DNA of 64,000 nucleotides from a virus, in the UHGV virus genome UHGV-0209617. One strand, written 5' to 3'. Position numbers and translations under genes: made by a program. Numbering within the stretch: position 1 is the stretch's first letter; every line of letters starts with the position of its first letter. This document shows positions 640-64,000 of this stretch, in pieces. Under the pieces are notes generated by a model. The model made no database searches and was not told the origin of the DNA. It worked only from the letters and a program-made list of their open reading frames with translations.

Positions 640-643
640 AATA

Positions 644-3780: not shown

Positions 3781-4326
3781 ATGTATAAAAGAATATTCAT
3801 AATGATTATCGTGTTGCAGGCACTTTTTATAGGGGTATGCTCTGCCAATTCGGGCAGATTAGCAGACATTGGAGCAGAAGTATTTAAAGAAAGAATAGCT
3901 GCAGTCTCATCTTGTCGAGTGACGGAATTTGTCATTAGTACCCCAACAGGTGTTATAGCAAATTCGCGTCCAGAAACAACGGAGTATGAGTTCCGCATTT
4001 TCAATACCTCAGACAATATGGTACTTTTTGATGTATATGTGAATCAAGAAGGGTATATTGACAGTATAGTAATAAGTGGCCCATTCGCTAATCAAACAAA
4101 TCGTAAATTTTTATCCGATCTTGTAGTTAAATCAATGCTTGTTATTGGCTTGAGTTATGATGAGATGAGGTGGTTAGTTAACAATGGTAGTAATCAAAGT
4201 AGGCTATACGAAGGTAGGGTATATTCTGAAAAATTACTTAGGGATGTTTATTACTCTTTATGCATAGAATCAAACGGTTTTTGTATAAATACCATAGACA
4301 AAGTGTCGTTTAAAGATAGGTTGTAA
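3781..4326 (+). CDS. Secreted protein, paralog family member 1 (unknown function)
   Basis: MYKRIFIMIIVLQALFIGVCSANSGRLADIGAEVF signal-peptide-like N-terminus; conserved VYVNQEGYIDSI and GRDVYY motifs shared with 7393-7959 and 8061-8633; GGGAGG upstream. Confidence 0.7.
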   Translation: MYKRIFIMIIVLQALFIGVCSANSGRLADIGAEVFKERIAAVSSCRVTEFVISTPTGVIANSRPETTEYEFRIFNTSDNMVLFDVYVNQEGYIDSIVISGPFANQTNRKFLSDLVVKSMLVIGLSYDEMRWLVNNGSNQSRLYEGRVYSEKLLRDVYYSLCIESNGFCINTIDKVSFKDRL

Positions 4327-4441
4327 TAAGGAGAGATGTTTTTAAGATAATAAGCTAGTAGGATGTGTAGAATACTATAAAATAGGTTAACGGATACATC
4401 GGTAAATAAAATTAAGGTTATATGTATGGTGGCCAGATGAT

Positions 4442-4740
4442 ATGATAAAAAGAGTATTTTTTACGTTTATCGTGCTGCAGATATTTTTATAGGTCCGTGC
4501 TATGCAAGTTCAGACAGATTAGCAGATATTGGAGCGGAGTTATTTAAAGAAAGAATTGTAGAAGATATACCTTTCAAGGTTGCAGATTTCAAAATAACAA
4601 ATGAAGCGACCGTTGCTAGAGAACAGCCACATATGGCTGGTGACTCTAAATACGAATTTATGGCAGTGCAGAATCAAAATGTAATGCTTATGATTGATGT
4701 TTATGTGAACCGAGAAGGTTACATAGATAGTATTATTAAC
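4442..4740 (+). pseudogene. Frameshifted and 3'-truncated copy of the secreted paralog family (closest to 8061-8633)
   Basis: Near-identical DNA to the 5' part of 8061-8633 but with one T missing in a T-run (5 T vs 6 T), giving a stop after 16 codons; homology ends near 4740 where the 536-aa ORF begins. Confidence 0.7.
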
Positions 4741-4754
4741 TGTGGGGAAAATAT

Positions 4755-12642: not shown

Positions 12643-14298
12643 ATGATTAAGGAGGTAACGGAGATGGTTGCGAAAAATTATGGTGTTGTTTACACACCGA
12701 ATAGACTGGCTGAGTTCGCAGCAGAACTTTTATATAGAGAGGCAGCAGAAACTAATACAGAAATAAAGTCGGTATTGGATCCTGCGTGTGGCGAATGCGC
12801 ATTGCTATGTGCTGCAAAGAAATATTTGAATGGTAATGTGAAATATTTGGGAATTGATGTCGATAAAGAAGCAATAATGAATGTTGAGGATGATTTTGAA
12901 ATTCTTTATAATGATTCAATTCTTCCGCGAAATGTAAAAAAACAGACGGCAGAATATTGGAAGAGCAAGATGCCAGTAATATCTGCTATAATTGCAAATC
13001 CACCGTGGAGTTCCGAAAAAATATATGTGCGAGAAGAATTGCAGAGTGCCGGTTTCTCGTTGACCACAGGACAATATGATAGCTTTGTGCTATTTATTGA
13101 GTTGGCATATAATCTGCTTGATGATGGAGGATACTTTTCGTTTATTATCCCCGATTCGTTATTTGATGCACAAAACGAAAAACTAAGAAGATTTTTGACT
13201 GAAAAGATGCAAATCAAAGTGATTGCCAGACTTGGAGAGAAGATTTTTGAAGAAGTGAATAGAGCAACTACTGTTATTGTTTGCAGAAAAGAAAAGCCAG
13301 TCAAAGATTCTGTCACCCACTGTTTCAGACTTACTACGGAAGAAAGAAGAAAGTTTTTGAATTCGAATCAGAGTTTGTTAAACTTTTACAACGAAGATGT
13401 GCATGATGTGTTGCAGGGGCGATTTGCTGAAAACGCTGCCTGTAACTTTGACGTTGATACGCGCACTGATGAAGAGGCATTGTTGGCTAAAATTAAGAAG
13501 CAGTCTATAAGTTGGGAGGATATATTCATTTTTGGTCGAGGTGTTGAGATATCCAAAACAGGAAAGGTCGTATTTTGTCCTTCGTGTGGTTATGCCCAAG
13601 GGTATAAAAAATCACAAATGGCTGAAGGAAAAAAAGAATGTACGAACTGTGGCAGTGAGATATCGGTTACTACGGCAAGTGTTCAAAATGTTATTTCACA
13701 AAGTCAAACGCCACAGACTGTTCAGATATATGTTGGAGAGAATGTTCGGAGATATGGAATAACAGGAGAATGCTATATCAAACCCAACATTCCCGGAATC
13801 AATTATAAAAATCGTGCGATGTACAACCCACCAAAACTGTTGGTGAGAAAGACTGGACTTGGAATATATGCATCGATTGATTATACGGGAAGCATGACAA
13901 GTCAGGCTGTATATATTTTGAAATTTAAAAACAGTCAACATAAGGCTCCGTTGGAATATTATCTGGCATTGCTTAACTCACGAGTGGTCTACTATTTTTA
14001 TTTGAAAGTATATGGAGAAAATGAATGGAAGTCCCATCCGTACTTTACGAAACAGATTATTTATTCTCTGCCTATTAGAGAATATGAGGATAGTGAGTTA
14101 GATAAACAGATCATTAAAGTGGCATCGGAATTGGCGCATAAATATGAATATGTCAAGGATGTTCAGCTTGAGAAGTTGGTAATGAAAAAGTATGGTCTGT
14201 CAGAGACCGAAAGCAATATGGTTTATGGTGAGATGAATCGTCTGCCTGACTTGAGTGCGATTAACAATATGAAAGTTGAGGTGGAAGCGAATGTATAG
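12643..14298 (+). CDS. N6-adenine DNA methyltransferase, gamma-class order (motif I then NPPW), with zinc ribbon and C-terminal recognition domain; probable start ATG at 12664
   Basis: VLDPACGECALL (motif I-like), IIANPPWS (motif IV), CPSCG...CTNCG zinc ribbon; AAGGAGGT 8 nt before the ATG at 12664. Confidence 0.85.
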   Translation: MIKEVTEMVAKNYGVVYTPNRLAEFAAELLYREAAETNTEIKSVLDPACGECALLCAAKKYLNGNVKYLGIDVDKEAIMNVEDDFEILYNDSILPRNVKKQTAEYWKSKMPVISAIIANPPWSSEKIYVREELQSAGFSLTTGQYDSFVLFIELAYNLLDDGGYFSFIIPDSLFDAQNEKLRRFLTEKMQIKVIARLGEKIFEEVNRATTVIVCRKEKPVKDSVTHCFRLTTEERRKFLNSNQSLLNFYNEDVHDVLQGRFAENAACNFDVDTRTDEEALLAKIKKQSISWEDIFIFGRGVEISKTGKVVFCPSCGYAQGYKKSQMAEGKKECTNCGSEISVTTASVQNVISQSQTPQTVQIYVGENVRRYGITGECYIKPNIPGINYKNRAMYNPPKLLVRKTGLGIYASIDYTGSMTSQAVYILKFKNSQHKAPLEYYLALLNSRVVYYFYLKVYGENEWKSHPYFTKQIIYSLPIREYEDSELDKQIIKVASELAHKYEYVKDVQLEKLVMKKYGLSETESNMVYGEMNRLPDLSAINNMKVEVEANV

Positions 14299-15349
14299 AT
14301 ATATAGGAAACAAATCAAAGCTGACTCCATACATTCTTGATAGGGTGGAACAGCTTATTGGAAAAACAGGAATTGTTGCTGACATTATGGCTGGAACAGG
14401 AACTGTGGCATTAGAATTGAGAAAAGCAGGTTATTCGGTTATCGCATCTGATGTAATGACCTATTCGTACCATCATTTGATGGTTAATCTTTGCTTAGAT
14501 TCAGCTCCTTCTTTTTCTGGGCTTGTGAATCATGGAGCAATAGGCAAGAATGAGGTGGATGCATATGGTGCAATCCTGACTTATTTAAATTGCATTGAAC
14601 CCAAAGAAGGTTTTTTCTTCAAGGAATTTTCTCCGGGTGGAACACCGCAGAATGGTTGCGACCCGAGAAAATATTTCACTACGGAAAATGCAAAGAAAAT
14701 TGATGCGATTAGAGAAAAAATAAATGAGTGGATTGATAATGGATATGTGAGCAAAGCTGAAGAATCGCTTTTAAAACATACTCTTATTATGGCAGTAAAC
14801 GAGGTTGCCAATATATCTGGAACTTACGGATATTTTTTGGCTGATTTCAAAAAGAATGCCAATGCACAGATTGATTTAAAACCTGTGGAATTTTGTTCTG
14901 TGAATTCAACTGGTCACATGGTAAAATTGGGATTTGCTGAAAATTTAGCTGCAACAATTACAGTTGATTTGTGCTACATCGACCCTCCGTATATGAAGAG
15001 ACAGTATGCTGCGAATTATCATATTCTGGAAACCATTGCACGAGGAGATTTCCCTGATGCTGTTGGTAAAAGTGGCTTGCGTGACTGGTGGGAGCAGCAC
15101 TCTAAATTGTGTACCAAAACACGAGGATTACAATCGTTTGAAAAGATATTAGGTGATATGCATTGCCCGAAATTTCTGATTAGCTACAGTGAGGATGGTT
15201 TGTTTACGCTGGGGCAATTAGAAGAATGTTTTAGCAAGTTTGGAACTGTTGACGTTCAAGAAATTGATTACAATCGATTTAGAAGCAATGATAGCAAGTT
15301 GCCTAAAAAACTGAAGGAATATTTGATTTCTATAGAAAGGCAGGTATAA
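14291..15349 (+). CDS. D12-class (Dam-like, alpha-order) N6-adenine DNA methyltransferase
   Basis: RYIGNKSKL N-terminal motif, ADIMAGTGTV (motif I), CYIDPPYM (motif IV); ATG overlaps the upstream stop (ATGTATAG). Confidence 0.85.
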   Translation: MYRYIGNKSKLTPYILDRVEQLIGKTGIVADIMAGTGTVALELRKAGYSVIASDVMTYSYHHLMVNLCLDSAPSFSGLVNHGAIGKNEVDAYGAILTYLNCIEPKEGFFFKEFSPGGTPQNGCDPRKYFTTENAKKIDAIREKINEWIDNGYVSKAEESLLKHTLIMAVNEVANISGTYGYFLADFKKNANAQIDLKPVEFCSVNSTGHMVKLGFAENLAATITVDLCYIDPPYMKRQYAANYHILETIARGDFPDAVGKSGLRDWWEQHSKLCTKTRGLQSFEKILGDMHCPKFLISYSEDGLFTLGQLEECFSKFGTVDVQEIDYNRFRSNDSKLPKKLKEYLISIERQV

Positions 15350-15353
15350 GTGA

Positions 15354-17024
15354 ATGGAGTGCATTGAAAGAATATTTTACAGAAAGATTAATCCTTCTGA
15401 TTTCAAAAAGTTGTATGATATTGACAAACCAGAAGGTGGCGGTGGTCAGACATACTTGGAAGCCGCTGGTATTTCAAATGAAAAAATCGTTGATTTCCTT
15501 TCCTATGCGGAGGTTACAAACAGTCCTTTGCCAGATGAAACAAGGTCTGTTTATACATTCAATGCCTATGTTTTGGGCGATTCAAAGGGTAAATGTTCGT
15601 TTGTAGAATTTGCACCTCGCAAAGGAAGAAATAACTATCGTATAAGCCGTCAGAACATGAAATATAAACATCCGGCATGGAGTTTGGATAATGGATTTCC
15701 CGAACCATCAAAAGGTGATGATGGCGAATACACATCTGCAGGCGATTTTGTGGGAATCATTGATAATCTTGTTATTCTTATCATAAGAACTACAAATCGG
15801 CGTTATTATGCAGGTTTTGTAAATATAGCGACAATGCCAGAGAACTGGCCACACAATATTGGCTTAGAGGGCATTTTTAGTGGTGAACGCAGAGATGTAC
15901 TAAAAATGGATGCGTATAAACTACAGTTTGTTAATGATGCCTGTAATCCATTCGGTGATTATGTCCCAACAATCGAAGAATGTAATCGAGCGACTACTGG
16001 TTGCAATGTGCTTTTGTACGGAGTTCCCGGAGCAGGAAAGAGTTGGACAATTGAACACGAATATTGTGCCGATGAAGGGTGTATGGAGCGATTGGTTTTC
16101 CATCCGGATTATATGTATTCGGATTTCGTTGGACAAATTTTGCCTGTAGTAAGGGACGATGACAAGGTTCGTTATGAGTTTACGCCGGGTCCGTTTACCA
16201 AATTATTAAAAAAAGCATATTGGAATACAGAACAGTCTTTTTACCTTATAATAGAAGAAATAAATCGTGGTAATGCACCAGCGATATTCGGTGAAATATT
16301 TCAGCTTTTGGATAGAAAAGATGAAGACGAAATAGATGAAAATAGGGAGATTCTCTACAAAAAAGGCACAAGTGAGTATGGAATAACAAATGCCAATATT
16401 GCACGAATCGTTTATGGCGATGAAAACCATAAGGTTCGAATTCCTGCAAATATGTCTATTTTGGGTACAATGAATACTTCTGACCAAAATGTTTTTACAT
16501 TAGACACAGCATTTCAGAGAAGATGGATTATGAGAATGATTCCGAATTCATTTGATAACCATAAGTTCGCAGACAAGAAGATTTTGGATACTGATATTTC
16601 CTGGAGACAGTTCTGTGAAGCAATTAATGAGGAAATTTTGCGTAGAAACAACATCACATCTTCTGAGGATAAGCGACTTGGGGCATATTTTATCTCGGCT
16701 TCGGATTTGGAGATGAAACCAATCACAGACGGGATGAGCGAAAAAGAAAAAATCCAAGTGGAGCATAGCAACAGCAGATTTGCAGAAAAAGTATTGAAAT
16801 ATTTATGGGATGATGCTTTCAAATTTTCCCATCAAGATACATTTAACACAAGACAGTTTGGTAGTCTTGAAAAAGTTATCGAAGGCTTTATGAATCCTGC
16901 CAAGCCTAAAAATGAGCGTTTTCGTGTATTCAATGAGAACCTTCGTAAAATGATTTTGGATGGAGTAACAGCAGAATCAAACGAGGTTTCTGATGATGAC
17001 AGCGAAGGCTCACAGGAATCTTAA
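15354..17024 (+). CDS. McrB-like AAA+ GTPase restriction subunit with an N-terminal domain of about 200 aa that I cannot assign
   Basis: LLYGVPGAGKSW (Walker A), LIIEEINRGNAPAIFGEIFQLLDR (McrB-type IDEINRAN-like motif), ILGTMNTSDQN (NTxD-type motif). Confidence 0.85.
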   Translation: MECIERIFYRKINPSDFKKLYDIDKPEGGGGQTYLEAAGISNEKIVDFLSYAEVTNSPLPDETRSVYTFNAYVLGDSKGKCSFVEFAPRKGRNNYRISRQNMKYKHPAWSLDNGFPEPSKGDDGEYTSAGDFVGIIDNLVILIIRTTNRRYYAGFVNIATMPENWPHNIGLEGIFSGERRDVLKMDAYKLQFVNDACNPFGDYVPTIEECNRATTGCNVLLYGVPGAGKSWTIEHEYCADEGCMERLVFHPDYMYSDFVGQILPVVRDDDKVRYEFTPGPFTKLLKKAYWNTEQSFYLIIEEINRGNAPAIFGEIFQLLDRKDEDEIDENREILYKKGTSEYGITNANIARIVYGDENHKVRIPANMSILGTMNTSDQNVFTLDTAFQRRWIMRMIPNSFDNHKFADKKILDTDISWRQFCEAINEEILRRNNITSSEDKRLGAYFISASDLEMKPITDGMSEKEKIQVEHSNSRFAEKVLKYLWDDAFKFSHQDTFNTRQFGSLEKVIEGFMNPAKPKNERFRVFNENLRKMILDGVTAESNEVSDDDSEGSQES

Positions 17025-17040
17025 AGCGAGGTGAGCGACA

Positions 17041-18321
17041 TTGGATTTAGGCTTAAACTTAAAAGTTAAATGTCATGTGAATAAAAATGGTGATGGCGAT
17101 AGGTTTGTCGGGATTAAGGCTGATGCTAATCAAGCAATGGTCTATTTTCCAATGGGGTATCGCCTGCCAGACAATGAAGAAGATATTAGGGATGATATTC
17201 TAAAATTGATTTCTGTATTAGCTGAGTTTACGGATTCAAAAGACAAGGTATTGGCTATGCAGAAATTTGAAGCACCACAGTCTGTGAATTTTCCAATCAA
17301 TGCCTATATGAATATTATCCGATACTATTTGGAACAACGTTCATATTACACAGAAAAGGATCCTATTCTAAAGACGAGTGACAGAGGAAAAATCGACTTT
17401 GCAGCATCTTTGCGTAGAAATGTTAGCTTTTTTCAAGAAGATGGAACTCCGTTTTTTGATAAATATACAGTAAAAGGGTCAACTCCTAATGATAAAAATT
17501 TAATAACTATGATTCACAAATACTGTGTGCATGAAAGTTTTGCTCAGATGGGTTGGCTGTTTATGCCGGATGTCCCACAAGATCCACATATTGAACGAAA
17601 CATTCCGCTTTTCCTCAGTGTACTGAAGAAAAAATTGGCAGTCACGCATCTTGAAAAGGATATTCTGCTATTTGAAGCAATGATTTCTATGCTGGAATAT
17701 TTGGATGAGAAAAGTGACGATAAACAATACTATTTTGGAACAGATAGATTTGAATATGTGTGGGAAAAACTGATAGATGCAGTGTTTGGCATAAAAGAAA
17801 AGAATGATTATTTTCCACGAACCTCTTGGAAACTAAACTATGGTGACCAACGAAGAAATTATGCATTAGAGCCGGACACCATAATGCTTTGTAATGGAAA
17901 AATCTATGTCATTGATGCAAAGTATTATAGATACGGTGTAACCGGTACACCTTCGCATTTGCCGGAATCATCATCTATCAACAAGCAGATTACATATGGT
18001 GAGTACATATATAATCATAAGAAATTTAAGGATGTATATGGTGATGATGTTCCTGTGTATAACGCATTCCTTATGCCGTATAACAAACAGGATAATCCAT
18101 TTCATATCAATGAGTATTTCGCCAATATTGGTGAGGCTGATAGTGACTGGAAATATGGCAATCATAATTATGAACGGGTGCAAGGAATTGTAGTTGATAT
18201 TCGTTTCTTGATGAACAATTACTATGGTTCGCACAAGAGTAAAATTATTAAGATGGCGAAGCTCATCGAGGAAGCCCTGCAGGAAAATGCAGATACGCTT
18301 CCAGAAGAAAAGACTGAATAA
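17041..18321 (+). CDS. McrC-like PD-(D/E)xK nuclease subunit (TTG start)
   Basis: ALEPDTIMLCNGKIYVIDAKYY gives PD...D-x-K; position immediately after the McrB-like gene; GAGGTGA 7 nt before the TTG. Confidence 0.75.
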   Translation: MDLGLNLKVKCHVNKNGDGDRFVGIKADANQAMVYFPMGYRLPDNEEDIRDDILKLISVLAEFTDSKDKVLAMQKFEAPQSVNFPINAYMNIIRYYLEQRSYYTEKDPILKTSDRGKIDFAASLRRNVSFFQEDGTPFFDKYTVKGSTPNDKNLITMIHKYCVHESFAQMGWLFMPDVPQDPHIERNIPLFLSVLKKKLAVTHLEKDILLFEAMISMLEYLDEKSDDKQYYFGTDRFEYVWEKLIDAVFGIKEKNDYFPRTSWKLNYGDQRRNYALEPDTIMLCNGKIYVIDAKYYRYGVTGTPSHLPESSSINKQITYGEYIYNHKKFKDVYGDDVPVYNAFLMPYNKQDNPFHINEYFANIGEADSDWKYGNHNYERVQGIVVDIRFLMNNYYGSHKSKIIKMAKLIEEALQENADTLPEEKTE

Positions 18322-32222: not shown

Positions 32223-32325
32223 CTGCCAAACTATAGTATAATGTAAACTGTGAAAAGAATATAATCATAGAGCCATTGGAGAGCAATCTTCGATGGCTTT
32301 TCTTATGCCCGAAAGAGGTGAAGCC

Positions 32326-32697
32326 ATGCCAAGGAAACCAAAGCGTCCCTGCAGATACAGCGGATGCCCGAAGCTGACAGAAGGATACTATTGCGATGAA
32401 CATCAGAAGCTAATGGACAGGCAGTACGATAAATACCGCCGCCCGGCTGAAGCCAAGAAAAGGTATGGCTATCAGTGGAGAAAGATAAGAGCTGCGGTAC
32501 TGGCAAGAGAGCCGTTCTGTCTGGAGTGCCGAAAGGCTGGAAGAATAACCAAGGCCACAGAGGTGCATCATGCTGTGCCATTAGACCACGGCGGTACCAA
32601 CGAGGATAGTAATTTGATACCGCTCTGCAAGCCGTGTCACTCCCGCATAACTGTGGAGATGGGGGATAGATGGCATAAGAAAAAGCTGCCCATATGA
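32326..32697 (+). CDS. HNH endonuclease (packaging-associated)
   Basis: CxxC...EVHHAVPLDHGG...CKPCH; AGGTGA SD. Confidence 0.8.
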   Translation: MPRKPKRPCRYSGCPKLTEGYYCDEHQKLMDRQYDKYRRPAEAKKRYGYQWRKIRAAVLAREPFCLECRKAGRITKATEVHHAVPLDHGGTNEDSNLIPLCKPCHSRITVEMGDRWHKKKLPI

Positions 32698-32778: not shown

Positions 32779-33060
32779 TTAAGCATCACCTAATACCTCG
32801 TTGCGTAATTCCTTGAATGAAGAATAACGTTTATACTTTTCCGGATTAGCTTTCATTGTATAGTATTCATTCATGGCATCGAGTGTTTCCGGATTAGGTA
32901 CTGAACGCTTGATGTCGAAGGGAATGCGCTGTTCACGAACAGCCTGCCGAAGGAATATTGTGACAGCTGTAGTCAAATCCATACCAAGGTCTGAAAAAAG
33001 ACTTTGTGCATTGAGCTTCAACTGAGGGTCTAATGCTATGTTTGTACTTACTTTAGCCAT
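32779..33060 (-). CDS. RelB/DinJ-family antitoxin-like protein with no adjacent toxin gene
   Basis: MAKVSTNIALDPQLKLNAQSLFSDLGMDLTTAVTIFLRQAVREQRIPFDI matches the RelB/DinJ fold; strong SD AGGAGGTG; opposite strand to all neighbours. Confidence 0.7.
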   Translation of the reverse strand: MAKVSTNIALDPQLKLNAQSLFSDLGMDLTTAVTIFLRQAVREQRIPFDIKRSVPNPETLDAMNEYYTMKANPEKYKRYSSFKELRNEVLGDA

Positions 33061-33252: not shown

Positions 33253-33804
33253 TTGCCAACAAAATCCAACAACACCGGCGGCCGTGGAGGTAAAAGACTA
33301 GGTGCCGGACGCAAGAAAAAAGCACTGGCAGACAAGCTGGAAACAAATAATCCAGGTGGCCGCCCGCTGGTGGTTTTAGACATACCAGAATTTGAAGGAA
33401 TGGATATGCCACCGCCCAGGGAATTTCTATCCGCCCAGCAGCGTGATGGAAGTGACCTGCAAGCAAATGAGATATATGAGGAAACATGGGAGTGGCTGAA
33501 GAAAATCGGCATGGCAGGAAAGGTAAGCAAGCAGCTTCTTGAACGCTATGCAATGTGCGCTGCCCGCTGGGTGCAGTGCGAGGAAATGACCAGCCGAATG
33601 GGTATGCTTTCTAAGCACCCTACAACGGGAAAACCTATCCCAAGTCCATTCATAAACATCGGGATAAACTACATGAATCAGGCTAACAGGCTGTGGGGAG
33701 AAATCTTCCAGCTTGTTAAGGAGAACTGCTCGACAGGCTATGAGGGAGCCAATCCAACAGACGATGTGATGGAGCGGCTGCTCAGAGCAAGGAGCGGAAG
33801 GTAA
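33253..33804 (+). CDS. Phage terminase small subunit (P27-like), TTG start
   Basis: Basic glycine-rich N-terminus NTGGRGGKRLGAGRKKK and position before terL; GGAGGAG SD. Confidence 0.75.
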   Translation: MPTKSNNTGGRGGKRLGAGRKKKALADKLETNNPGGRPLVVLDIPEFEGMDMPPPREFLSAQQRDGSDLQANEIYEETWEWLKKIGMAGKVSKQLLERYAMCAARWVQCEEMTSRMGMLSKHPTTGKPIPSPFINIGINYMNQANRLWGEIFQLVKENCSTGYEGANPTDDVMERLLRARSGR

Positions 33805-36575: not shown

Positions 36576-36604
36576 TTGATAATAATACAGATGTACGGTA
36601 ATAT
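36576..36604 (+). promoter_or_regulatory. Near-consensus sigma-A promoter (TTGATA, 17 bp, TAATAT) upstream of the amidoligase gene
   Basis: Hexamers and spacing read directly; the same architecture and flanking sequence recur at 38144-38172. Confidence 0.6.
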
Positions 36605-36653
36605 ACACACAACAAAAGGGAACACCCCACCAAGAGAAAGCGAGGAAAACAAA

Positions 36654-37541
36654 ATGGATTTAAGAGCACAGACCTTCGGAGTAGAGATTGAGATGACCGG
36701 CCTTACAAGAAACAGGGCCGCAAAGGTAATCGCCGCATACTTCGGAACGGAGGCAACCTACTTCGGAGGCGGATACGATGAGCACCACGCAAAGGACAGC
36801 AAGGGCAGAATCTGGAAGGCCATGAGCGATTCAAGCATCAGGGCAGAAAAGAAGGACGGCTCCTACGCAAGCGACCTTTACAAGACCGAGGTGGTAACCC
36901 CAATCCTCAGATACGAGGACATTGAAGACCTACAGGAAATCCTGAGAAAGCTCAGAAAGGCAGGGGCGATGGTAAACAGCAGCACAGGGATTCACATCCA
37001 CATCGGAGCGGAGAATTTCACCCCGGCTACCCTTTGCAACCTTCTGAAGAACATCCGAAGCAAGGAGGACATTCTTTACAGAGCCATTCAGGTCAAGGAA
37101 AACCGCGCAAGGTACTGCAGAAAAACAAACCAGAAGCTCATCGAGATGATTGAGGCACACCGCCCCAAGACAAAGGAGCAGCTTGCAGACCTTTGGTATG
37201 CAGAAGCACCATACGGAAGAAACAGGCATTACAACGACAGCAGATACCACGGACTTAACCTCCACGCATACTTCACTAAGGGAACGGTCGAGTTCAGGCT
37301 TTTCAACAGCACCCTCCACGCAGGCGAATTGAAAGCCTACATACAGTTCTGCATGGCGGTTACAGCAAAGGCCATAAACACCAAGAAGGCAAGCGCGAAG
37401 CCAAGCATCAGCGACAACGAAAAATACACTTTCAGATGCTGGCTCCTCCGCCTGGGCCTTAACGGAGAAGAATTCAAGACCTGCAGAACCCACCTTTTGA
37501 AGCACCTCGAAGGAAACAGCGCCTGGAGGCACCTTTCCTAA
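36654..37541 (+). CDS. Amidoligase-family enzyme (phage-associated amidoligase)
   Basis: N-terminal FGVEIEMTG and overall pattern consistent with the Amidoligase_2 family; GGCT-like gene follows. Confidence 0.7.
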   Translation: MDLRAQTFGVEIEMTGLTRNRAAKVIAAYFGTEATYFGGGYDEHHAKDSKGRIWKAMSDSSIRAEKKDGSYASDLYKTEVVTPILRYEDIEDLQEILRKLRKAGAMVNSSTGIHIHIGAENFTPATLCNLLKNIRSKEDILYRAIQVKENRARYCRKTNQKLIEMIEAHRPKTKEQLADLWYAEAPYGRNRHYNDSRYHGLNLHAYFTKGTVEFRLFNSTLHAGELKAYIQFCMAVTAKAINTKKASAKPSISDNEKYTFRCWLLRLGLNGEEFKTCRTHLLKHLEGNSAWRHLS

Positions 37542-37638
37542 AACAAACCGGCCTACCAGCCCCGAAAGGGGCCTTTCGGTGGTAGAAGCACCTAGCTTCT
37601 GAATAAACCGATTTGCTTTAGGAAGGGAGTCTTCAACA

Positions 37639-38097
37639 ATGAAAAGAAAAATCTATCTGGCCTACGGAAGCAACATGAGCCTTTTGCAGATGTACCACCG
37701 TTGCCCTGATGCAGAACCGATTGGCAAGGGCATCATCAAGGATTACCGCCTGATGTTTAAGGGAAGTAAGAGTGGCAACTATGCGACCATCGAATACGAG
37801 GAAGGACGGCAGGTGCCTGTGGTAGCCTGGGCAATCAGTGAAAGGGATGAAAAATGCCTTGACCGCTATGAAGGATTTCCGAGCTTTTATGTGAAGGACA
37901 CCATCGCATTTGAATATATCGGTGATCGCCCAGGAAGAAGGATGAAGGATGAGGGCATGGTTTATGTGATGCCGCCAGATGAGACTGTTCTGGGGCTTCC
38001 AAGTGGTCACTACATGGATGTCCTTCTTGAAGGCTACCATCGCTTCGGATTTAATTCCAGAATCCTTTGGGAAGCCTACGAATACAGCGATGAGTGA
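37639..38097 (+). CDS. Gamma-glutamylcyclotransferase-like (GGCT/AIG2-like) protein
   Basis: N-terminal YLAYGSNMS motif typical of the GGCT fold; GGAAGGGAG SD. Confidence 0.75.
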   Translation: MKRKIYLAYGSNMSLLQMYHRCPDAEPIGKGIIKDYRLMFKGSKSGNYATIEYEEGRQVPVVAWAISERDEKCLDRYEGFPSFYVKDTIAFEYIGDRPGRRMKDEGMVYVMPPDETVLGLPSGHYMDVLLEGYHRFGFNSRILWEAYEYSDE

Positions 38098-38400: not shown

Positions 38401-38562
38401 CAAAGAAAAGCCGGAAGGACCTCGGAAGGGGGCCTTTTGGTCGTGGTAGCATAAATAGACTTTACAAGTTCCCAACTACACCATGTTAAAGTATCGGCTC
38501 CGATGGGAGCTTCATATCTAACCGCCTCTGGGCGGATTTTTTTATGTCTGGAAGTGAGAGAA

Positions 38563-40170
38563 ATGGCAATAAGGAAACTGAAAAAATACATACCGACAAA
38601 ATTCATGTCTGAAGACAGCCATTATGATAAGGGGGCGGCTGACTATGCCGTAGCATTTATTGAAGCCTTATGCCATACCAAGGGAACTTGGGCAGGTAAG
38701 CCTTTTGAGCTAATCGATTGGCAGGAACAGATTATTCGTGACCTTTTTGGTATCCTAAAGCCAAATGGATATAGGCAGTTTAATACAGCCTATGTTGAAA
38801 TACCCAAAAAGCAAGGAAAATCTGAGCTGGCAGCGGCCGTTGCAATCCTTTTAACCTGCGGTGATGGTGAGGAACGTGCGGAGGTTTATGGCTGTGCTGC
38901 AGACCGGCAACAGGCATCCATTGTTTTTGATGTTGCTGCGGATATGGTCAGTATGTGTCCTGCTTTAGCCAAGCGCGTAAAAATACAGAAATCTATGAAG
39001 CGCATGATATATCTTCCTACGAACAGCTTCTACCAGGTGCTTTCGGCAGAGGCCTATTCAAAGCATGGCTTCAATATCCATGGTGTTATCTTTGATGAGC
39101 TTCATACCCAGCCAGACCGCAAGCTGTATGATGTAATGACCAAAGGCTCCGGCGATGCAAGAATGCAGCCGATGTATTTTAATATAACTACAGCAGGGAC
39201 GGATACTCATTCCATATGCTACGAAATACATCAGAAGGCAAAGGATATTATTGCTGGGCGGAAGATTGATACAACCTTCTATCCTGTGATTTATGGTGCG
39301 GATGAAGGAGAGGATTGGACTTCTCCAGAAGTGTGGAAGAAGGCAAATCCGTCTCTTGGCATTACTGTTGGCATGGATAAGGTTGAAGTTGCTTGTGAGT
39401 CTGCAAGGCAGAATCCAGGGGAAGAAAATGCTTTTCGCCAACTTCGTCTTAACCAATGGGTAAAGCAGTCGGTTCGTTGGATGCCTATGGAAAAATGGGA
39501 TGAGTGCAGCTTCAAAGTTAACCCTGATGACCTAGAAGGACGCGTATGCTATGGAGGTCTTGACCTATCCAGCACCACAGATATAACAGCCTTTGTATTG
39601 GTGTTTCCTCCGGAGGATGAGGAGGATAAATATCATATACTGCCTTATTTCTGGATACCGGAGGAAACAATGGATCTTCGTGTAAAGCGTGACCATGTGC
39701 CCTATGATATCTGGCATAAGCAGGGATTCCTTGAAACCACCGAAGGCAATGTAGTCCACTATGGCTACATCGAGAAATTCATTGAATCCCTCGGTGAAAA
39801 ATATAATATCCGTGAGATTGCCTTTGATAGATGGGGTGCGACACAGATGGTGCAGAATCTTGAGGGCATGGGATTTACTGTTGTTCCCTTTGGACAAGGT
39901 TACAAGGATATGAGTCCGCCAACCAAGGAGCTGATGAAGCTGACCCTTGAAAAGAAACTGGCTCATGGCGGTCATCCAGTTCTGAGGTGGATGGCAGACA
40001 ATATCTTCATCCGAAGGGATCCCGCTGGGAACATCAAGGCAGACAAAGAAAAGTCCACAGAGAAGATTGACGGTGTCATAGCCACCATAATGGGGCTGGA
40101 CAGAGCAATTCGCTGTGGATTGAATTCTGGAGATTCCGTTTATGATGGGCGAGGAATTTTGTTAATATAA
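38563..40170 (+). CDS. Phage terminase large subunit (intact)
   Basis: 536-aa ORF; nuclease-domain C-terminus matches the fragments at 1-267 and 986-1203; preceded by CCGCC/GGCGG hairpin plus T-run at 38523-38543. Confidence 0.9.
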   Translation: MAIRKLKKYIPTKFMSEDSHYDKGAADYAVAFIEALCHTKGTWAGKPFELIDWQEQIIRDLFGILKPNGYRQFNTAYVEIPKKQGKSELAAAVAILLTCGDGEERAEVYGCAADRQQASIVFDVAADMVSMCPALAKRVKIQKSMKRMIYLPTNSFYQVLSAEAYSKHGFNIHGVIFDELHTQPDRKLYDVMTKGSGDARMQPMYFNITTAGTDTHSICYEIHQKAKDIIAGRKIDTTFYPVIYGADEGEDWTSPEVWKKANPSLGITVGMDKVEVACESARQNPGEENAFRQLRLNQWVKQSVRWMPMEKWDECSFKVNPDDLEGRVCYGGLDLSSTTDITAFVLVFPPEDEEDKYHILPYFWIPEETMDLRVKRDHVPYDIWHKQGFLETTEGNVVHYGYIEKFIESLGEKYNIREIAFDRWGATQMVQNLEGMGFTVVPFGQGYKDMSPPTKELMKLTLEKKLAHGGHPVLRWMADNIFIRRDPAGNIKADKEKSTEKIDGVIATIMGLDRAIRCGLNSGDSVYDGRGILLI

Positions 40171-40178
40171 ATTATAGG

Positions 40179-40207
40179 TTGAATATATCCTAGAGATGGT
40201 ATATAAT
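40179..40207 (+). promoter_or_regulatory. Promoter candidate for Phd-Doc (TTGAAT, 17 bp, TATAAT)
   Basis: Hexamers and spacing read directly. Confidence 0.5.
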
Positions 40208-40230
40208 AGCCATGAAAGGAGATGATACCT

Positions 40231-40473
40231 ATGATGGTTGATACTAATAATCTTGTTTCAATAACTGAGGCAAACCAGAATTTTTCAAAGGTCGCTCGTA
40301 TGGTAGATGAGTCAGGTTCTGTTGTAATCCTAAAAAATAATGTACCTAAATATTTAGTAGTTAATTTTGATGTGGCTGATAGCGTGGATTATACTTCAGA
40401 TGAAGAGCTGCTCATGGTATCAGATAAATTTATGAAGAAAAATAAAAAGGCGTATGAGGTATTGGCAAAATGA
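40231..40473 (+). CDS. phd: Phd/YefM-family antitoxin
   Basis: VSITEANQNFSKVARMVDESGSVVILKNNVPKYLVV; stop overlaps the Doc start (ATGA). Confidence 0.8.
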   Translation: MMVDTNNLVSITEANQNFSKVARMVDESGSVVILKNNVPKYLVVNFDVADSVDYTSDEELLMVSDKFMKKNKKAYEVLAK

Positions 40474-40844
40474 AGCGAATATCTAAACGTCAGGTATTAT
40501 TGCTGCATAATAAGCTGATAGAGGAAAGTGGCGGCTCTGATGGTATCAGGGAAGATGGACTCTTGGAATCAGCTTTGAATGCGCCTTACCATGAGTTTGC
40601 AGGTTTTTCAAACTATCCCACGATAGAAGAAAAAGCTGCCAGGCTCGGTTATGGTATAATCAAGAACCATCCATTTGTTGATGGGAATAAAAGAATTGGT
40701 ACCCATATTATGCTTCTGCTTTTGTATATCAATGGTGTTGAGTTGGTATATGAACAGGAGGAGCTGATAGACATAATTCTACAAGTTGCATCAGGACAAG
40801 CTGATTATGAAGAGTTATATGCTTGGGTTTTAGATCATGAATAA
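40470..40844 (+). CDS. doc: Doc (death-on-curing) Fic-family toxin
   Basis: Fic motif HPFVDGNKRIG. Confidence 0.85.
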   Translation: MKRISKRQVLLLHNKLIEESGGSDGIREDGLLESALNAPYHEFAGFSNYPTIEEKAARLGYGIIKNHPFVDGNKRIGTHIMLLLLYINGVELVYEQEELIDIILQVASGQADYEELYAWVLDHE

Positions 40845-40889
40845 CAAGGGTGTTGCCGTAATGGTAACGCCTATTTTTATGGAGGAAAA

Positions 40890-42167
40890 ATGAATATATT
40901 TACAAAACTTTTCAAGTCGAGGGATAAGCCGACCAACTATCTGGGCGGTTTATCCTTTTTATTTGGTCAGACTGCAGCCGGTAAGCCGGTTAATGAGAAG
41001 TCTGCCATGCAGGTAACAGCAGTTTATGCCTGTGTCAGAATTTTGGCAGAATCCATAGCAGGGCTGCCGCTTCATGTGTATAGGTACAATTCGGGTGGCG
41101 GCAAGGAAATGGTGACAGACCATAATCTGTACCGCATCCTGCATGATGAGCCTAATCCGGATATGACAAGCTTCATATTTAGGGAAACACTGATGAGCCA
41201 TCTTCTCTTGTGGGGTAATGCCTATGCACAGATTATTCGTGATCATGCTGGCAGGATGATAGGGCTGTATCCTTTACTTCCAGATAAGGTAGAGGTAGAT
41301 AGGGACAGCAGCACCGGTGAAATCTTCTATACCTATACCAAAAGCACAGACGAAAATCCGAACTTCAAGCAGGGCGGACAGATAAGGCTTAACAAGAATG
41401 CTGTACTTCATATTCCAGGTCTTGGCTTTGATGGACTTGTAGGATATAGTCCTATTGCCATGGCGAAAAATGCTGTAGGTATTGCTCTTGCCACCGAAGA
41501 ATATGGTGCTACCTTCTTTGCTAACGGTGCAACACCGGGCGGTATCTTAGAGCACCCTGGTGTGGTAAAAGACCCAGAACGTCTACGTCAGAGCTGGCAG
41601 AGTCAGTTTGGGCAGAAGAACAGCCACAGGGTAGCTGTGCTGGAAGAAGGCATGACCTTTCACCAGATGACCATACCGCCAGAAGAAGCACAGTTCCTGG
41701 AAACAAGGAAGTTTCAGATTGATGAGATTGCCCGTATTTTCAGGGTACCGCCACACATGGTAGGTGACCTTGAAAAATCCAGCTTCTCTAATATTGAGCA
41801 GCAGAGCCTTGAGTTTGTGAAATACACACTGAACCCTTGGGTTATCCGCTGGGAGCAGGCCCTTCAGAAAGCACTCCTTACAGATAAGGAAAAGGGCGAG
41901 TATTTCGTAAAGTTCAACGTGGATGGACTTCTCCGTGGTGACTACCAGAGCCGTATGAACGGCTACGCCATTGGGCGGCAGAATGGCTGGTTTTCAGCCA
42001 ATGACATCAGGGAAATGGAGAACCTAAATCCAATACCTGATGAAGAAGGTGGAAATCTCTATCTTATTAATGGCAATATGACAAAATTAAAGGATGCTGG
42101 CCTTTTTGCCGGTCAGCAGAAAGGAAAAGAAAATGAAGAGAAAGTTTTGGAACTGGGTGCGAAATGA
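40890..42167 (+). CDS. Phage portal protein (HK97-like)
   Basis: 425 aa; position after terL; homolog of the fragment at 1721-2212. Confidence 0.85.
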   Translation: MNIFTKLFKSRDKPTNYLGGLSFLFGQTAAGKPVNEKSAMQVTAVYACVRILAESIAGLPLHVYRYNSGGGKEMVTDHNLYRILHDEPNPDMTSFIFRETLMSHLLLWGNAYAQIIRDHAGRMIGLYPLLPDKVEVDRDSSTGEIFYTYTKSTDENPNFKQGGQIRLNKNAVLHIPGLGFDGLVGYSPIAMAKNAVGIALATEEYGATFFANGATPGGILEHPGVVKDPERLRQSWQSQFGQKNSHRVAVLEEGMTFHQMTIPPEEAQFLETRKFQIDEIARIFRVPPHMVGDLEKSSFSNIEQQSLEFVKYTLNPWVIRWEQALQKALLTDKEKGEYFVKFNVDGLLRGDYQSRMNGYAIGRQNGWFSANDIREMENLNPIPDEEGGNLYLINGNMTKLKDAGLFAGQQKGKENEEKVLELGAK

Positions 42168-60203: not shown

Positions 60204-60228
60204 ATAAGCACGGTTGGAGGTGATTGCC

Positions 60229-60810
60229 ATGAATGACATTGAAAAGCTTGTTGATGAGTCAGGAATGATTACAACTAGAGATATAGTGAAAAATAATCAG
60301 TCAAAAGTAGAATTTTACAATTACCTGAGAAAAAATGATTTTGAACAAGTATCGCGTGGTATATATGCTTCTAAGGATGCGTGGGTAGACCCATTATTGA
60401 TTGCGCATATGAGATGTCCTAAAGCGGTGATCTCTCATGATGTGGCACTTCATTATTATGGCTTGGTTGATAGAGAGCCTTCAGCTCCAACGCTTACTAT
60501 TTATTCTGGATACAACACAAGCAGGTTAAAAGAAGCAGGGTACAAGGTGTTTTTCGTGAAGAAGGAATACCTTGATGCTGGCAAAGAAGAGGTTGTAAAT
60601 TTTGATGGCAACATCATTCCTATGTATAACCTTGAAAGAACGATGTGTGACCTTGTCAGAAACAGAAGCAGCTTTGAGATTCAAGATTTCAATGCAGCTA
60701 TAAAAGCGTATGCCAGAAAAAAGGAAAAGAATCTTACAAGGCTATTTGAATATGCGAAAATGCTTAGGGTGGAAAAATTGATGCGGTCATATATGGAGGT
60801 GCTTTTGTAA
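60229..60810 (+). CDS. abiEi: AbiEi-family antitoxin / transcriptional regulator
   Basis: N-terminal DNA-binding-like region ending ...VSRGIYA; paired with a DUF1814-type nucleotidyltransferase; GGAGGTGA SD. Confidence 0.75.
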   Translation: MNDIEKLVDESGMITTRDIVKNNQSKVEFYNYLRKNDFEQVSRGIYASKDAWVDPLLIAHMRCPKAVISHDVALHYYGLVDREPSAPTLTIYSGYNTSRLKEAGYKVFFVKKEYLDAGKEEVVNFDGNIIPMYNLERTMCDLVRNRSSFEIQDFNAAIKAYARKKEKNLTRLFEYAKMLRVEKLMRSYMEVLL

Positions 60811-61664
60811 TGATCTTATCAGCTGCACAGGCAAGAGGCAGGATTAAGAATATTGTGGCAAAAAATGGTGCGGACCCAAGACTGCTTATGAGAATTTATA
60901 TGATGGAGAGATTTTTGGAACGAGTATCCCTTTCTGCATACAAGGATAATTTCATCATTAAGGGCGGAATGCTTATAACATCATTGGTTGGTATTTCCAT
61001 GCGGTCAACTATGGATATTGACACAACTGTAAAAGGCCAGGATGTAAGCATGGAAAATGCACAGCGTATTGTTAAAGAAATTGCTGACATTCAGATTGAT
61101 GATGGGGTTTCTTTTGTGATTAAAGATGTAGAAAACATAATGGATGAGATGGAATATCCAGGAATCAAATTTCACTTGGAAGTGTTATTAGACAAAATGG
61201 TTACGCCAATAAAGATTGATGTTTCTACGGGCGATGCAATTACACCCAGAGCGATTGAATATAATTACAAGCTTATGCTTGAAGATAGAGAAATCGGGCT
61301 GTGGAGCTATAATCTGGAAACAATCCTTGGGGAAAAATTACAGACGATACTTGTACGTGAACGTGCAAACACCAGAATGAGAGATTTCTATGATATATGT
61401 GTATTGGTAGAAATGTATGACAGTAAGATAAATACTGTCAATTTCAAAGCAGCATATGAGGCGACCTGTAGAAAAAGAGGGTCATTACACTTATTTGGTA
61501 ATGAAGGAAAAATACTGGATATAATAGCTGGTGAAAGTAAAATGATTGATAGATGGACAAATTATCAGAAGAAGTTTTCTTATGCATCTGATATCAGTTT
61601 TGAGAAAGCTATTCAGTGTGCAAAGGGGTTAATTTCATTCTTGAAAAATAGTACCGGAAAATAA
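60810..61664 (+). CDS. abiEii: AbiEii-family nucleotidyltransferase toxin (DUF1814-type)
   Basis: 284 aa directly coupled to the AbiEi gene; typical gene pair. Confidence 0.75.
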   Translation: MILSAAQARGRIKNIVAKNGADPRLLMRIYMMERFLERVSLSAYKDNFIIKGGMLITSLVGISMRSTMDIDTTVKGQDVSMENAQRIVKEIADIQIDDGVSFVIKDVENIMDEMEYPGIKFHLEVLLDKMVTPIKIDVSTGDAITPRAIEYNYKLMLEDREIGLWSYNLETILGEKLQTILVRERANTRMRDFYDICVLVEMYDSKINTVNFKAAYEATCRKRGSLHLFGNEGKILDIIAGESKMIDRWTNYQKKFSYASDISFEKAIQCAKGLISFLKNSTGK

Positions 61665-62526: not shown

Positions 62527-62751
62527 ATGCAGAAATCAGATCTTGGGGAACGGGAATACCTTAGCAAGAAGTATACTGCCGTCTTCTTCGGACTCAGTCC
62601 CAGGCGGCTTGAGCGATTCCTCAAAGCAGATGACTATGATTTTGTTGTGTATTATAAGAAAAGAACACTGATATTAAGGGAGGCCTTCAACAGATATCTC
62701 TGGAGGAATCCTGATGTAAGGGAGATGTTGAAACGTGGCAAGACGAGGTGA
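62527..62751 (+). CDS. Second excisionase-like HTH protein
   Basis: YLSKKYTAVFFGLSPRRLERFLK; start chosen at the ATG 8 nt after GGAGG. Confidence 0.55.
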   Translation: MQKSDLGEREYLSKKYTAVFFGLSPRRLERFLKADDYDFVVYYKKRTLILREAFNRYLWRNPDVREMLKRGKTR

Positions 62752-64000
62752 AGTAAGAAGGGATTCAAGGAACAGGCTGTTAAGGATAGGTGAATCCCAG
62801 CGTAAAGATGGCAAGTACATGTTCAAATACCATGTGGATGGCAGACCGTATTTCGTCACCAGCTGGAGACTGCTGCCTTCAGATAGGCAGCCAAAAGGTA
62901 CAAAGCCTACCCTTTCACTGAGGGAATTGGAAAAGAAGGTAGGAAGGGAAATCGACCTGCAGATGAGCCTTGAACTCAGGAACTGCACGGTTAAGGATTT
63001 GGTTGAGCGGTATTTGGCTACCAGGATTAATGCAAAGCCGAATACCAAGATGGGGTATAATACTGTAAAGAATGTACTGGAAAGTGAGCCCTTTTATCAT
63101 AGGAAGATAAAAACAATCAAGGTATCTGATGCAAAGATATTCCTCATCAAGTTGCAGGAAAATGGCAGGAAGGCCAGCACGGTGAAATGCATCAGAGGGG
63201 TTCTCCGCCCGGCTTTTCAGATGGCTGTAGATGATGATATGCTGGTCAAGAATCCTTTTGCTTTCGAGCTGGCAGGTGTCCTGGTAAATGACTCAGTCAC
63301 AAGGGAGGCTGTCAGCAGGAGGGAAATGAAAAAGTTCTTGCAGTTTGTCAGGAACGATGATTGCTACTGCAAATACTATGAGGCAGTACATATACTGTTC
63401 CATACGGGAATGCGAATATCTGAATTCTGCGGTCTGACGATAAATGACCTTGATATGGAGAACAGAATCATAGATATAAACCATCAGCTGGTGCGTGTGG
63501 GAATGAAGCTGATAATACAGACCACAAAGACCAACGCAGGCACCAGAAGGATTCCGATGTCTGAGGATGTATATGAAATGTTCAAGAGCATATTGGCTAA
63601 CAGGCCAACAGGCATAGATGAGAAAGCCGTTGATGGGTATAAGGGGTTCCTCTACCTTGATAATGCCGGACTGCCACTTGTGGCAATGCACTGGTCAAAC
63701 AGGTTCAGGCATATGGTCGGGCGCTACAATGACATTTACAAAGAACAGATGCCTAAAATCACTCCTCACGTCTGCCGCCATACCTACTGCAGCAACATGG
63801 CAAAATCGGGAATGCATCCAAAGATCCTGCAGTACCTTATGGGGCATTCGGACATTGGTGTGACGCTCAATACATATACCCACTTAGGGCTTGAGGACGC
63901 CCAGGGCGAGATGGACAGACTGAAGGATGCCCAACAGGAGATTGACAAGGGCAAGGTAAGGGAACTGCCACCAACCAAGGCTCAATTCAAAGTAGTATAA
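62735..64000 (+). CDS. int: Tyrosine site-specific integrase (Tn916 Int-like), GTG start, stop codon at the window end
   Basis: N-terminal RRDSRNRLLRIGESQRKDGKYMFKY resembles the Tn916 Int arm-binding domain; C-terminal ...HVCRHTYCSNMAKSG...LMGHSDIGVTLNTYTH carries the recombinase R...H-x-x-R...Y region. Confidence 0.85.
   Translation: MARRGEVRRDSRNRLLRIGESQRKDGKYMFKYHVDGRPYFVTSWRLLPSDRQPKGTKPTLSLRELEKKVGREIDLQMSLELRNCTVKDLVERYLATRINAKPNTKMGYNTVKNVLESEPFYHRKIKTIKVSDAKIFLIKLQENGRKASTVKCIRGVLRPAFQMAVDDDMLVKNPFAFELAGVLVNDSVTREAVSRREMKKFLQFVRNDDCYCKYYEAVHILFHTGMRISEFCGLTINDLDMENRIIDINHQLVRVGMKLIIQTTKTNAGTRRIPMSEDVYEMFKSILANRPTGIDEKAVDGYKGFLYLDNAGLPLVAMHWSNRFRHMVGRYNDIYKEQMPKITPHVCRHTYCSNMAKSGMHPKILQYLMGHSDIGVTLNTYTHLGLEDAQGEMDRLKDAQQEIDKGKVRELPPTKAQFKVV

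Follow-up and report, generated by a model that had tools for sequence, protein, structure and literature searches.

The founding addiction module is Phd-Doc of phage P1, an antitoxin-first operon in a temperate phage. P1 is a plasmid prophage, for which post-segregational killing is the obvious role. The chromosomal Phd-Doc of Streptococcus pneumoniae has been shown experimentally to be toxic and to be repressed by the Phd-Doc complex; its genes overlap by 4 nt and it has an inverted repeat over the -35 box (PMC4257102). Phd and Doc have also been described from the Streptococcus phages phi1207.3, phi-m46.1, and phi-SsUD.1 (PMC9504112 and PMC3750634). Here we analyze a phd-doc cassette (40179 to 40844) in a 64,000-nt stretch of the UHGV virus genome UHGV-0209617; we refer to this whole stretch as the window. 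The cassette lies between the genes for the large terminase subunit (terL) and the portal protein. This arrangement is already known from related phages, and the window holds one more prophage-borne Phd-Doc. It is probably a horizontally acquired type II toxin-antitoxin (TA) cassette that sits in the terL-portal slot of an integrated prophage and acts by canonical Phd-Doc addiction.

The Streptococcus prophages of the phi-m46.1/Javan family have TerL and portal proteins that are 63% and 68% identical, respectively, to those of the window. In Javan181 and PhiSdyV1524, the two Streptococcus records that we opened, the order is the same as in the window: terL, phd, doc, portal, ClpP-like protease, and HK97 capsid. 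The cassettes of this family also have the same 4-nt overlap and the same combination of palindrome and promoter. However, Doc is just 42 to 44% identical to that of the window and Phd is about 46 to 56% identical, the C-terminal toxin-binding segment of Phd differs, and the Streptococcus-phage cassettes have two adjacent palindromes instead of one.

P1 is more distant. It shares with the window the antitoxin-first operon, the Doc fold (template modeling [TM] score of 0.86), the motif HxFxD(A/G)NKR, and a temperate phage as the carrier, and P1 Phd may be remotely homologous to the window's Phd in the N-terminal domain, but P1 Doc is only about 24 to 25% identical to the window's Doc. The P1 operators have another sequence and are placed after the -10 box, ahead of the start codon (PMC4257102), whereas the palindrome in the window covers the -35 box. 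Also, the window's prophage is integrated (its integrase is at 62735 to 64000). The pneumococcal system resembles the window in its 4-nt overlap, its inverted repeat over the -35 box, its Doc-type motif, and its Firmicute host; it differs in its operator (GTAA.TTAC), in its motif (HVFANANKR), and in its location, which is on the chromosome beside type I restriction-modification genes and not in a phage late operon.

Two kinds of phage locus are also comparable. Like the morons of lambdoid and HK97 phages, the cassette has a deviant base composition and lies between genes that are adjacent in relatives; with its promoter and terminator, both predicted here, it would also be an autonomous unit. 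Like the hotspots of P2/P4-like phages, the slot has variable, defense-rich cargo between conserved core genes. Such cargo hotspots are an established concept, and the old/tin hotspot of P2 is likewise next to the portal gene (PMC9122126; bioRxiv 10.1101/2024.10.15.618418). The lambdoid, P2, and P4 systems differ from the window in phage lineage and in host phylum, and the slot here is between terL and portal.

Layout of the cassette

The cassette and its flanks contain these features:

38503 to 40170, + strand: terL, large terminase subunit, the upstream conserved flank (Pfam TerL_ATPase, 77 bits; TerL_nuclease, 159 bits)
40175 to 40192, + strand: palindrome TAGGTTGAATATATCCTA (TAGG-N10-CCTA) over the -35 box, proposed operator for Phd or Phd-Doc (single match in the window; association with Phd)
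40179 to 40207, + strand: predicted sigma-70/SigA-type promoter, TTGAAT-17-TATAAT (best match in the region, 10 of 12; conserved spacing)
40215 to 40221, + strand: AAAGGAG, Shine-Dalgarno sequence for phd, read from the sequence, 9 nt 5' of the ATG at 40231
40231 to 40473, + strand: phd, Phd/YefM-like antitoxin, 80 amino acids (Pfam PhdYeFM, family matches, hhalign, phrog_2194)
40470 to 40844, + strand: doc, Doc-family toxin with a Fic fold, 124 amino acids (TIGR01550, Pfam Fic, phrog_577, similarity to P1 Doc, AlphaFold2 [AF2] and Foldseek)
40668 to 40694, + strand: codons for the Doc motif HPFVDGNKR, residues 67 to 75 (read from the sequence; aligned to P1 Doc)
40848 to 40880, + strand: terminator-like hairpin (40848 to 40872) and T-run (40874 to 40878) (terminator scan and folding)
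40890 to 42167, + strand: portal protein, the downstream conserved flank (Pfam Phage_portal, 428 bits)

The phd and doc open reading frames (ORFs) were found where the first-pass annotation had placed them, and the translational overlap that it described is visible at 40470 to 40473: the ATG of doc (40470 to 40472) overlaps the TGA of phd (40471 to 40473) as ATGA. Similarly, the Pfam matches of the flanking genes bear out its placement of the module between terL and portal. An upstream ATG at 40222 is an alternative start for phd (40222 to 40473, 83 amino acids), but the ATG at 40231 is likelier because AAAGGAG lies 9 nt upstream; public contigs call the same 80-residue form.

The flanks are close on both sides. 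Just 4 nt separate the TAA stop codon of terL (40168 to 40170) from the palindrome, and the T-run of the hairpin abuts the ribosome-binding site of portal (GGAGG, 40881 to 40885). After portal, the head module has genes for a ClpP-like protease and an HK97-type capsid protein. The GC content is 0.365 over the cassette, with local values dipping to 0.31 to 0.40, versus 0.452 for terL, 0.462 for portal, and 0.460 for the prophage. We predict that the cassette is a self-contained unit of about 700 nt, comprising operator/promoter, phd, and doc. With a predicted promoter of its own, a terminator-like hairpin, and a GC dip between terL and portal, it would have the anatomy of a textbook moron.

Identity of the toxin and the antitoxin

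Doc matches TIGR01550 (DOC_P1) with 73.1 bits, against a cutoff of 38.65, and Pfam Fic (PF02661) with 66.1 bits, against a cutoff of 24. It belongs to phrog_577, "Doc-like toxin" (E = 1.6e-36), and is similar to P1 Doc (3k33; phmmer E = 3e-7). The AF2 model has a predicted local distance difference test score (pLDDT) of 89.9, and the top five Foldseek matches are all P1 Doc chains, including 3dd7_A and 3k33_A (TM scores of 0.84 to 0.86 and root mean square deviations of 2.3 to 2.5 over 123 columns). The next matches are larger Fic proteins, with target-normalized TM scores of about 0.3. The modeled protein thus superimposes on the compact all-helical fold of P1 Doc. Its HPFVDGNKR aligns with HIFNDANKR of P1 Doc and fits the Doc consensus HxFx(D/N)(A/G)NKR as quoted in PMC4257102, so the motif is intact, as had been claimed. 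H67, F69, D71, G72, N73, K74, and R75 are invariant across 42 homologs. By these profile matches and the predicted structure, the assignment of the toxin to the Doc family is unambiguous. Doc-type motifs have a K where AMPylating Fic proteins have the second G. We considered whether the protein might be an AMPylating Fic protein, and this was ruled out by the Doc-specific K and by best structural matches to P1 Doc instead of FICD or VbhT.

The antitoxin is more divergent. Its main PHROG, phrog_2194, is unannotated, and a search of NCBIfam found no match for it. However, all 29 of the aligned members of its family match PF02604 over the N-terminal domain with E of 0.01 or less (the best is 5.6e-8). 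When aligned with hhalign to a target set of P1 Phd, Escherichia coli YefM, and a ParE-linked Phd, the family matched with 75% probability (E = 2.5e-5), over the N-terminal 44 columns only, which is the beta-alpha-beta-beta domain. Across the family, this domain and a C-terminal tail, K-N-K-x-A-Y-E-V-L-A-K, are near-invariant. A protein identical to Phd (P0121) is listed for 29 contigs. We treat Phd as a divergent antitoxin of the Phd/YefM superfamily, with a C-terminal toxin-binding part that seems to be lineage-specific.

Predicted promoter, operator, and terminator

In every copy of phd-doc that we compared, the homology started a few bases 5' of AATAGGTTGAATwTATCCTAa and stopped at the doc stop codon. 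This element holds the -35 hexamer inside the TAGG-N10-CCTA palindrome, which occurs once in the window (0.03 occurrences are expected by chance). A scan of viral contigs for exact matches to the palindrome found 116 stretches, of which we fetched 80. Among these, 77 matches had enough downstream sequence, and 76 of the 77 had a Phd-family ORF about 35 nt 3' of the palindrome. In 74 of these 76 cassettes, Phd is paired with Doc, as in the window, where phd lies upstream of doc and overlaps it in one operon; the other two encode Phd only, and none encode Doc only. The palindrome test was also run on 75 genomic loci that were chosen by Doc similarity alone. Of the 28 loci with this Phd subfamily, 24 had the palindrome upstream, as did none of the 47 without it (Fisher test, 8e-16), against a background in the flanking DNA of these loci of 1 per 414 kb. 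TAGG-N10-CCTA is probably the operator of this Phd subfamily. Since the N-terminal domain of Phd is near-invariant and the palindrome is invariant, they are best read as a repressor and its operator.

The first-pass annotation had also proposed that TTGAAT-17-TATAAT is the cassette's own promoter. A promoter consensus scan is not significant by itself (7 sites versus 4.6 expected), but the -10 box is present at the same 17-nt spacing in 39 nonredundant cassettes, which supports the prediction. The ribosome-binding site is likewise kept, and neither element was part of the search pattern. Two other repeats, the direct repeat GAGATGGTA/GAGATGATA in the promoter region and a long-range inverted repeat (40171 to 40179 and 40227 to 40235), are not conserved in other cassettes.

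Directly 3' of the doc stop codon is the hairpin, which is followed by ATTTTTAT. The 61 nt from 40835 to 40895, which contain the hairpin, have a folding energy of -18.2 kcal/mol (z = -3.6), and 0 of 200 shuffled sequences fold as well.

Double palindromes are at 65 to 102 in contig L159, at 12469 to 12506 in L203, and, as an example from the Streptococcus-phage cassettes, at about 3040 to 3090 in L002. In some of the Streptococcus-phage cassettes, the 5' copy exactly matches the reverse complement of the 3' copy, which is reminiscent of the two-site operators of P1.

Relatives of the cassette

A tblastn search with Doc against 50,697 phage records matched 53 of them, including 29 Streptococcus phages with 42 to 44% identity. 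Javan191 has DinJ/RelB with Doc at the same junction. Copies of Doc that are 57 to 71% identical are found at unrelated chromosomal sites in gut Clostridia, where the neighbors of the cassette include a two-component system, glutamate dehydrogenase, and a ParE/Phd pair; an orphan Phd, 83% identical to the window's, is near jag/trmE. In a genome scan, Doc relatives in named species were at most 62% identical. Flavonifractor, Faecalibacterium, Ruminococcus, and other genomes carry the same family of cassettes with the same palindrome. Of about 80 viral cassettes, 21 to 25 are at terL-portal junctions and others are beside tail-chaperone or tape-measure genes, so late structural operons seem to be a repeated landing place. 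The promoter region is common to the cassettes in chromosomal, terL-portal, and tail-gene contexts.

Judging from these comparisons, the cassette is probably horizontally acquired. Because Doc is 43% identical to the Streptococcus-phage proteins versus up to 71% identical to chromosomal proteins from gut Clostridia, the cassettes of the two phage groups probably reflect independent acquisition, or a swap, into the same slot. We also considered vertical inheritance from an ancestor shared with the Streptococcus phages. The same identities make this unlikely, and it is further disfavored by the closest phage relatives (portal 77 to 79% identical), which hold other cargo.

Selection and junction alleles

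Relative to its closest relative (contig L010), the doc gene of the window has a single amino acid replacement and a synonymous divergence of 8.6%, which gives a ratio of nonsynonymous to synonymous rates (dN/dS) of about 0.04. In distant pairs, synonymous sites are saturated, yet the proteins are still 43 to 79% identical. Both phd and doc are under purifying selection. A chance pair of ORFs was ruled out by this selection and by thousands of homologs for both proteins.

Near-identical prophages (TerL 97 to 98% and portal 96% identical to the window's proteins) have three alleles at the junction. Allele A is the arrangement in the window and is protein-identical, with intact doc, in the nine contigs listed, which are from different samples. 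Allele B adds a convergent 59-residue ORF before portal; it retains the hairpin, in which a U.G pair has become C-G (L010). In allele C, the promoter and the palindrome are still there and phd is intact (with two substitutions), and doc is gone after codon 12. The additional ORF of alleles B and C is located as follows:

6320 to 6505 in L026 and 1290 to 1469 in L010, - strand: convergent ORF of 59 to 61 amino acids between doc (or its stub) and portal, with a strong ribosome-binding site, GGAGGTAATTGTTATG

This ORF has no PHROG match and is not present in the window.

More broadly, doc was lost or truncated while phd was kept in three independent lineages. Two cases are chromosomal: the orphan Phd and a Phd with a 37-residue Doc stub (a sibling contig has the full 126 residues). 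A functional toxin would be expected to be lost while its antitoxin stays, as seen here, and the opposite was never found.

L010 (GCA_052273725.1, contig DAVZHS010000240.1, 2543 nt) contains an intact phd-doc, with a Doc that is 99% identical to the window's, flanked only by 79 codons from the end of terL and about 94 codons from the start of portal, the latter followed by a fragment of a serine recombinase. Either the prophage has decayed and the TA module is what survived, or the contig is an assembly chimera. In positions 1 to 6100 of another contig (L020), there is an identical terL-phd-doc-portal block, and genes for a sigma-70 region-4 protein, a Tn916-type Xis, and an integrase lie ahead of it in place of the replication and methylase genes of the window. 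The element may be rearranged or in tandem.

The terL-portal junction is a recurrent cargo slot

We selected relatives from IMG/VR by portal similarity only, with a single-protein scan (7 loci) and then an alignment-based scan. We measured the junction from the terL stop to the portal start in 77 usable loci, and we considered it to be sealed if the gap was under 150 nt. The first-pass annotation had stated that phage genomes are usually tightly packed at this position. This is correct for just 31 of the 77 relatives, in which terL and portal overlap as ATGA (several cases) or are 13 to 50 nt apart with a GGAGG. The other 46 have 0.3 to 2 kb of cargo. Nor is the location of the cassette exceptional: the junction is frequently occupied in this lineage, and Phd-Doc is already there in Streptococcus phages.

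The 69 nonredundant cargo ORFs (of at least 60 amino acids) match 42 Pfam families, and several have no family assignment. The TA cargo includes Gp49/HigB with helix-turn-helix partners (3), ParE (3) with Phd/YefM (2), and RelB with Doc; the abortive-infection (Abi) cargo includes AIPR/AbiU (2) and AbiEi/AbiEii. Other cargo includes 3'-phosphoadenosine 5'-phosphosulfate (PAPS) reductase/SspD-like proteins (2), HNH endonucleases, an aminoglycoside nucleotidyltransferase, and an isochorismatase. There was no close relative of the window's Phd-Doc among the IMG/VR junction cargos. Overall, the junction is a recurrent cargo slot in this phage lineage, and the cargo is often TA or abortive-infection genes. 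In our literature search, we found no paper that describes the terL-portal slot itself.

Proposed mechanism and role

While the late operon is silent in a lysogen, the cassette's own promoter would drive constitutive, autorepressed transcription, and phd and doc would be translated as a coupled pair. The C-terminal helix of Phd would neutralize Doc, and Phd or the Phd-Doc complex would bind TAGG-N10-CCTA over the -35 box and repress the promoter. The hairpin 3' of doc would keep transcription of the cassette from reaching portal. If the supply of Phd stopped, because the prophage or the segment was lost or because an invading phage shut off transcription, the labile Phd would decay. The freed Doc, a Fic-fold kinase, would phosphorylate EF-Tu and arrest translation. 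The net effect would be addiction: the cassette would stabilize itself and the surrounding DNA, with exclusion of other phages as a possible by-product. The toxicity, the EF-Tu target, the lability of Phd, operator binding, the behavior of the terminator, and the role are all expected by analogy to the P1 and pneumococcal systems. Addiction that stabilizes the cassette and the prophage region would be the default role, and it would fit the history of the module. PMC12548467 cites a precedent in which a prophage-borne TA system stabilizes an integrated prophage, CP4So.

Several observations weigh against this account. The first-pass annotation had named the pair as Phd/YefM and Doc; the Doc half is well supported, but the evidence for Phd is weaker than was implied. 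Its match to Pfam PhdYeFM (PF02604), at 24.4 bits, is below the gathering score of 29.8; searches against the PDB sequences, by single sequence and by profile or hidden Markov model, gave nothing or only chance matches to PCNA; and the AF2 model is unusable (pLDDT of 48, from 26 shallow sequences). P1 uses two operator sites for conditional cooperativity and the Streptococcus-phage cassettes have two palindromes, versus a single palindrome in the window. The T-run of the terminator is short and interrupted. If the terminator is functional, then expression of portal during lytic growth must require read-through, and we identified no antiterminator. Doc-less allele C is common (19 contigs), so doc must be dispensable for the phage. 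Finally, the benefit of addiction is less obvious for an integrated prophage than for one that is kept as a plasmid, like P1.

The first-pass annotation had suggested that the module could either stabilize the prophage or act against competing phages. The comparative data are compatible with both and do not discriminate between them. If abortive infection or superinfection exclusion were the primary role, then an incoming phage would stop transcription, Phd would decay, Doc would arrest translation, and the infection would abort, which would protect both the lysogen population and the prophage from competitors. In relatives, the same slot holds established Abi or defense genes (AbiEi/AbiEii, and AbiU/AIPR) as well as ParE, HigB/Gp49, and RelB-Doc; AbiEii is also found in the same prophage; Doc matches the PADLOC candidate-defense models PDC-S23 (E = 1e-18) and PDC-M59B; and TA systems as phage defense are reviewed in PMC12548467. 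However, those PADLOC models are for candidate systems only and the matches cover only the Fic core, and position is a weak argument because PAPS reductase, HNH endonucleases, and a resistance gene occupy the slot as well. Our literature search also found no demonstration of phage protection by any Phd-Doc, and we consider defense to be unlikely as the primary role.

The repeated loss of doc while phd persists raises the question of whether the cassette benefits anyone. It might be a purely selfish hitchhiker that is hard to delete and is heading for decay, and the coexistence of three junction alleles in one phage population, the sealed junctions of close phage relatives, and the presence of the cassette at many unrelated sites with no common neighbor would all be expected. 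But allele A is protein-identical with an intact doc across nine contigs from different samples, and doc is under strong purifying selection, which makes this very unlikely; also, the two readings do not truly exclude each other, since addiction is a selfish mechanism too. Alternatively, Phd might be the useful product, if it neutralizes or cross-represses a related chromosomal Phd-Doc in the host, and Doc would only hold the cassette in place. Such counter-defense or anti-addiction could account for allele C, which retains phd, the promoter, and the palindrome after the deletion of doc; genomes in the host range (Flavonifractor, Faecalibacterium, Ruminococcus, and others) do carry the same cassette family and palindrome; the near-invariance of both the N-terminal domain and the C-terminal tail of Phd makes cross-talk plausible; and the prophage has a second orphan antitoxin, of the RelB family. 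Still, an orphan antitoxin is the intermediate that one would expect when a TA system simply decays, antitoxins are usually specific for their own toxins, and there is no evidence of a chromosomal Phd-Doc that restricts this phage, so we view this as highly improbable. We continue to favor canonical addiction by a horizontally acquired cassette.

The prophage and its other accessory genes

Judging from its genes, the element is a prophage of the HK97 type that is integrated in a gut Firmicute. Upstream in the prophage are a DUF2800/PD-(D/E)XK nuclease, a family A DNA polymerase, VapE, and an SNF2 helicase; downstream are tail genes, an AbiE pair, and the integrase, which is a Tn916-type tyrosine integrase. 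The nearest annotated phages are gut "NatCom" phages ("Ca. Heliusvirales," a lineage described in PMC11283538) and Streptococcus prophages of the Javan and phi-m46.1 types, and their terL-portal DNA is about 70 to 74% identical to the window. Other accessory loci in the window are:

12643 to 18321, + strand: restriction island left of the prophage, with an N6-methylase/Eco57I-like protein with TaqI_C, an AAA_5 protein, and an LlaJI-type endonuclease
32779 to 33060, - strand: orphan RelB/DinJ-family antitoxin, 93 amino acids (Pfam RelB, 32.8 bits)
36576 to 38097, + strand: Amidoligase_2 and GGACT (gamma-glutamyl cyclotransferase-like) proteins, just 5' of terL (from the gene table of the near-identical locus L017)
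60214 to 61664, + strand: AbiE-type gene pair at the prophage end, upstream of the integrase (AbiEii, PF08843)

The layout of the restriction island is McrBC-like. The RelB/DinJ gene, which is the second antitoxin-like gene of the prophage, lies between an HNH endonuclease (32293 to 32697) and the small terminase subunit (33253 to 33804), with no space for a toxin partner. In the AbiE-type pair, the AbiEii nucleotidyltransferase toxin (60810 to 61664) matches PF08843 with 129 bits; the 198-residue ORF 5' of it has no Pfam match and is presumably AbiEi. This pair would be a further TA or Abi system at the end of the prophage. An accessory pair of Amidoligase_2 and GGACT has been reported from prophages of Clostridium clostridioforme (PMC11318856).

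Implications

Alone, one more prophage-borne Phd-Doc in the well-populated phrog_577 changes little. A broader interpretation is that the junction may be an undescribed hotspot for the exchange of TA and Abi genes in a very widespread, Heliusvirales-like lineage of Firmicute phages with an HK97-type head module; that Phd-Doc would be portable with a universal TAGG-N10-CCTA operator, so that prophage and chromosomal copies would cross-regulate and cross-neutralize each other; and that alleles with phd but not doc would be functional anti-addiction or counter-defense devices instead of decay products. We think that this combination is decidedly unlikely. The palindrome is a sharply defined cis-element and gives a handle for studying DNA recognition by Phd and for annotating these cassettes. 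The natural allelic series (phd-doc, phd-doc with a small convergent ORF, and phd only) is a ready-made experiment on TA systems in an integrated prophage. This phage lineage is ubiquitous in the human gut, and its terL-portal slot could be mined for new defense and TA genes.

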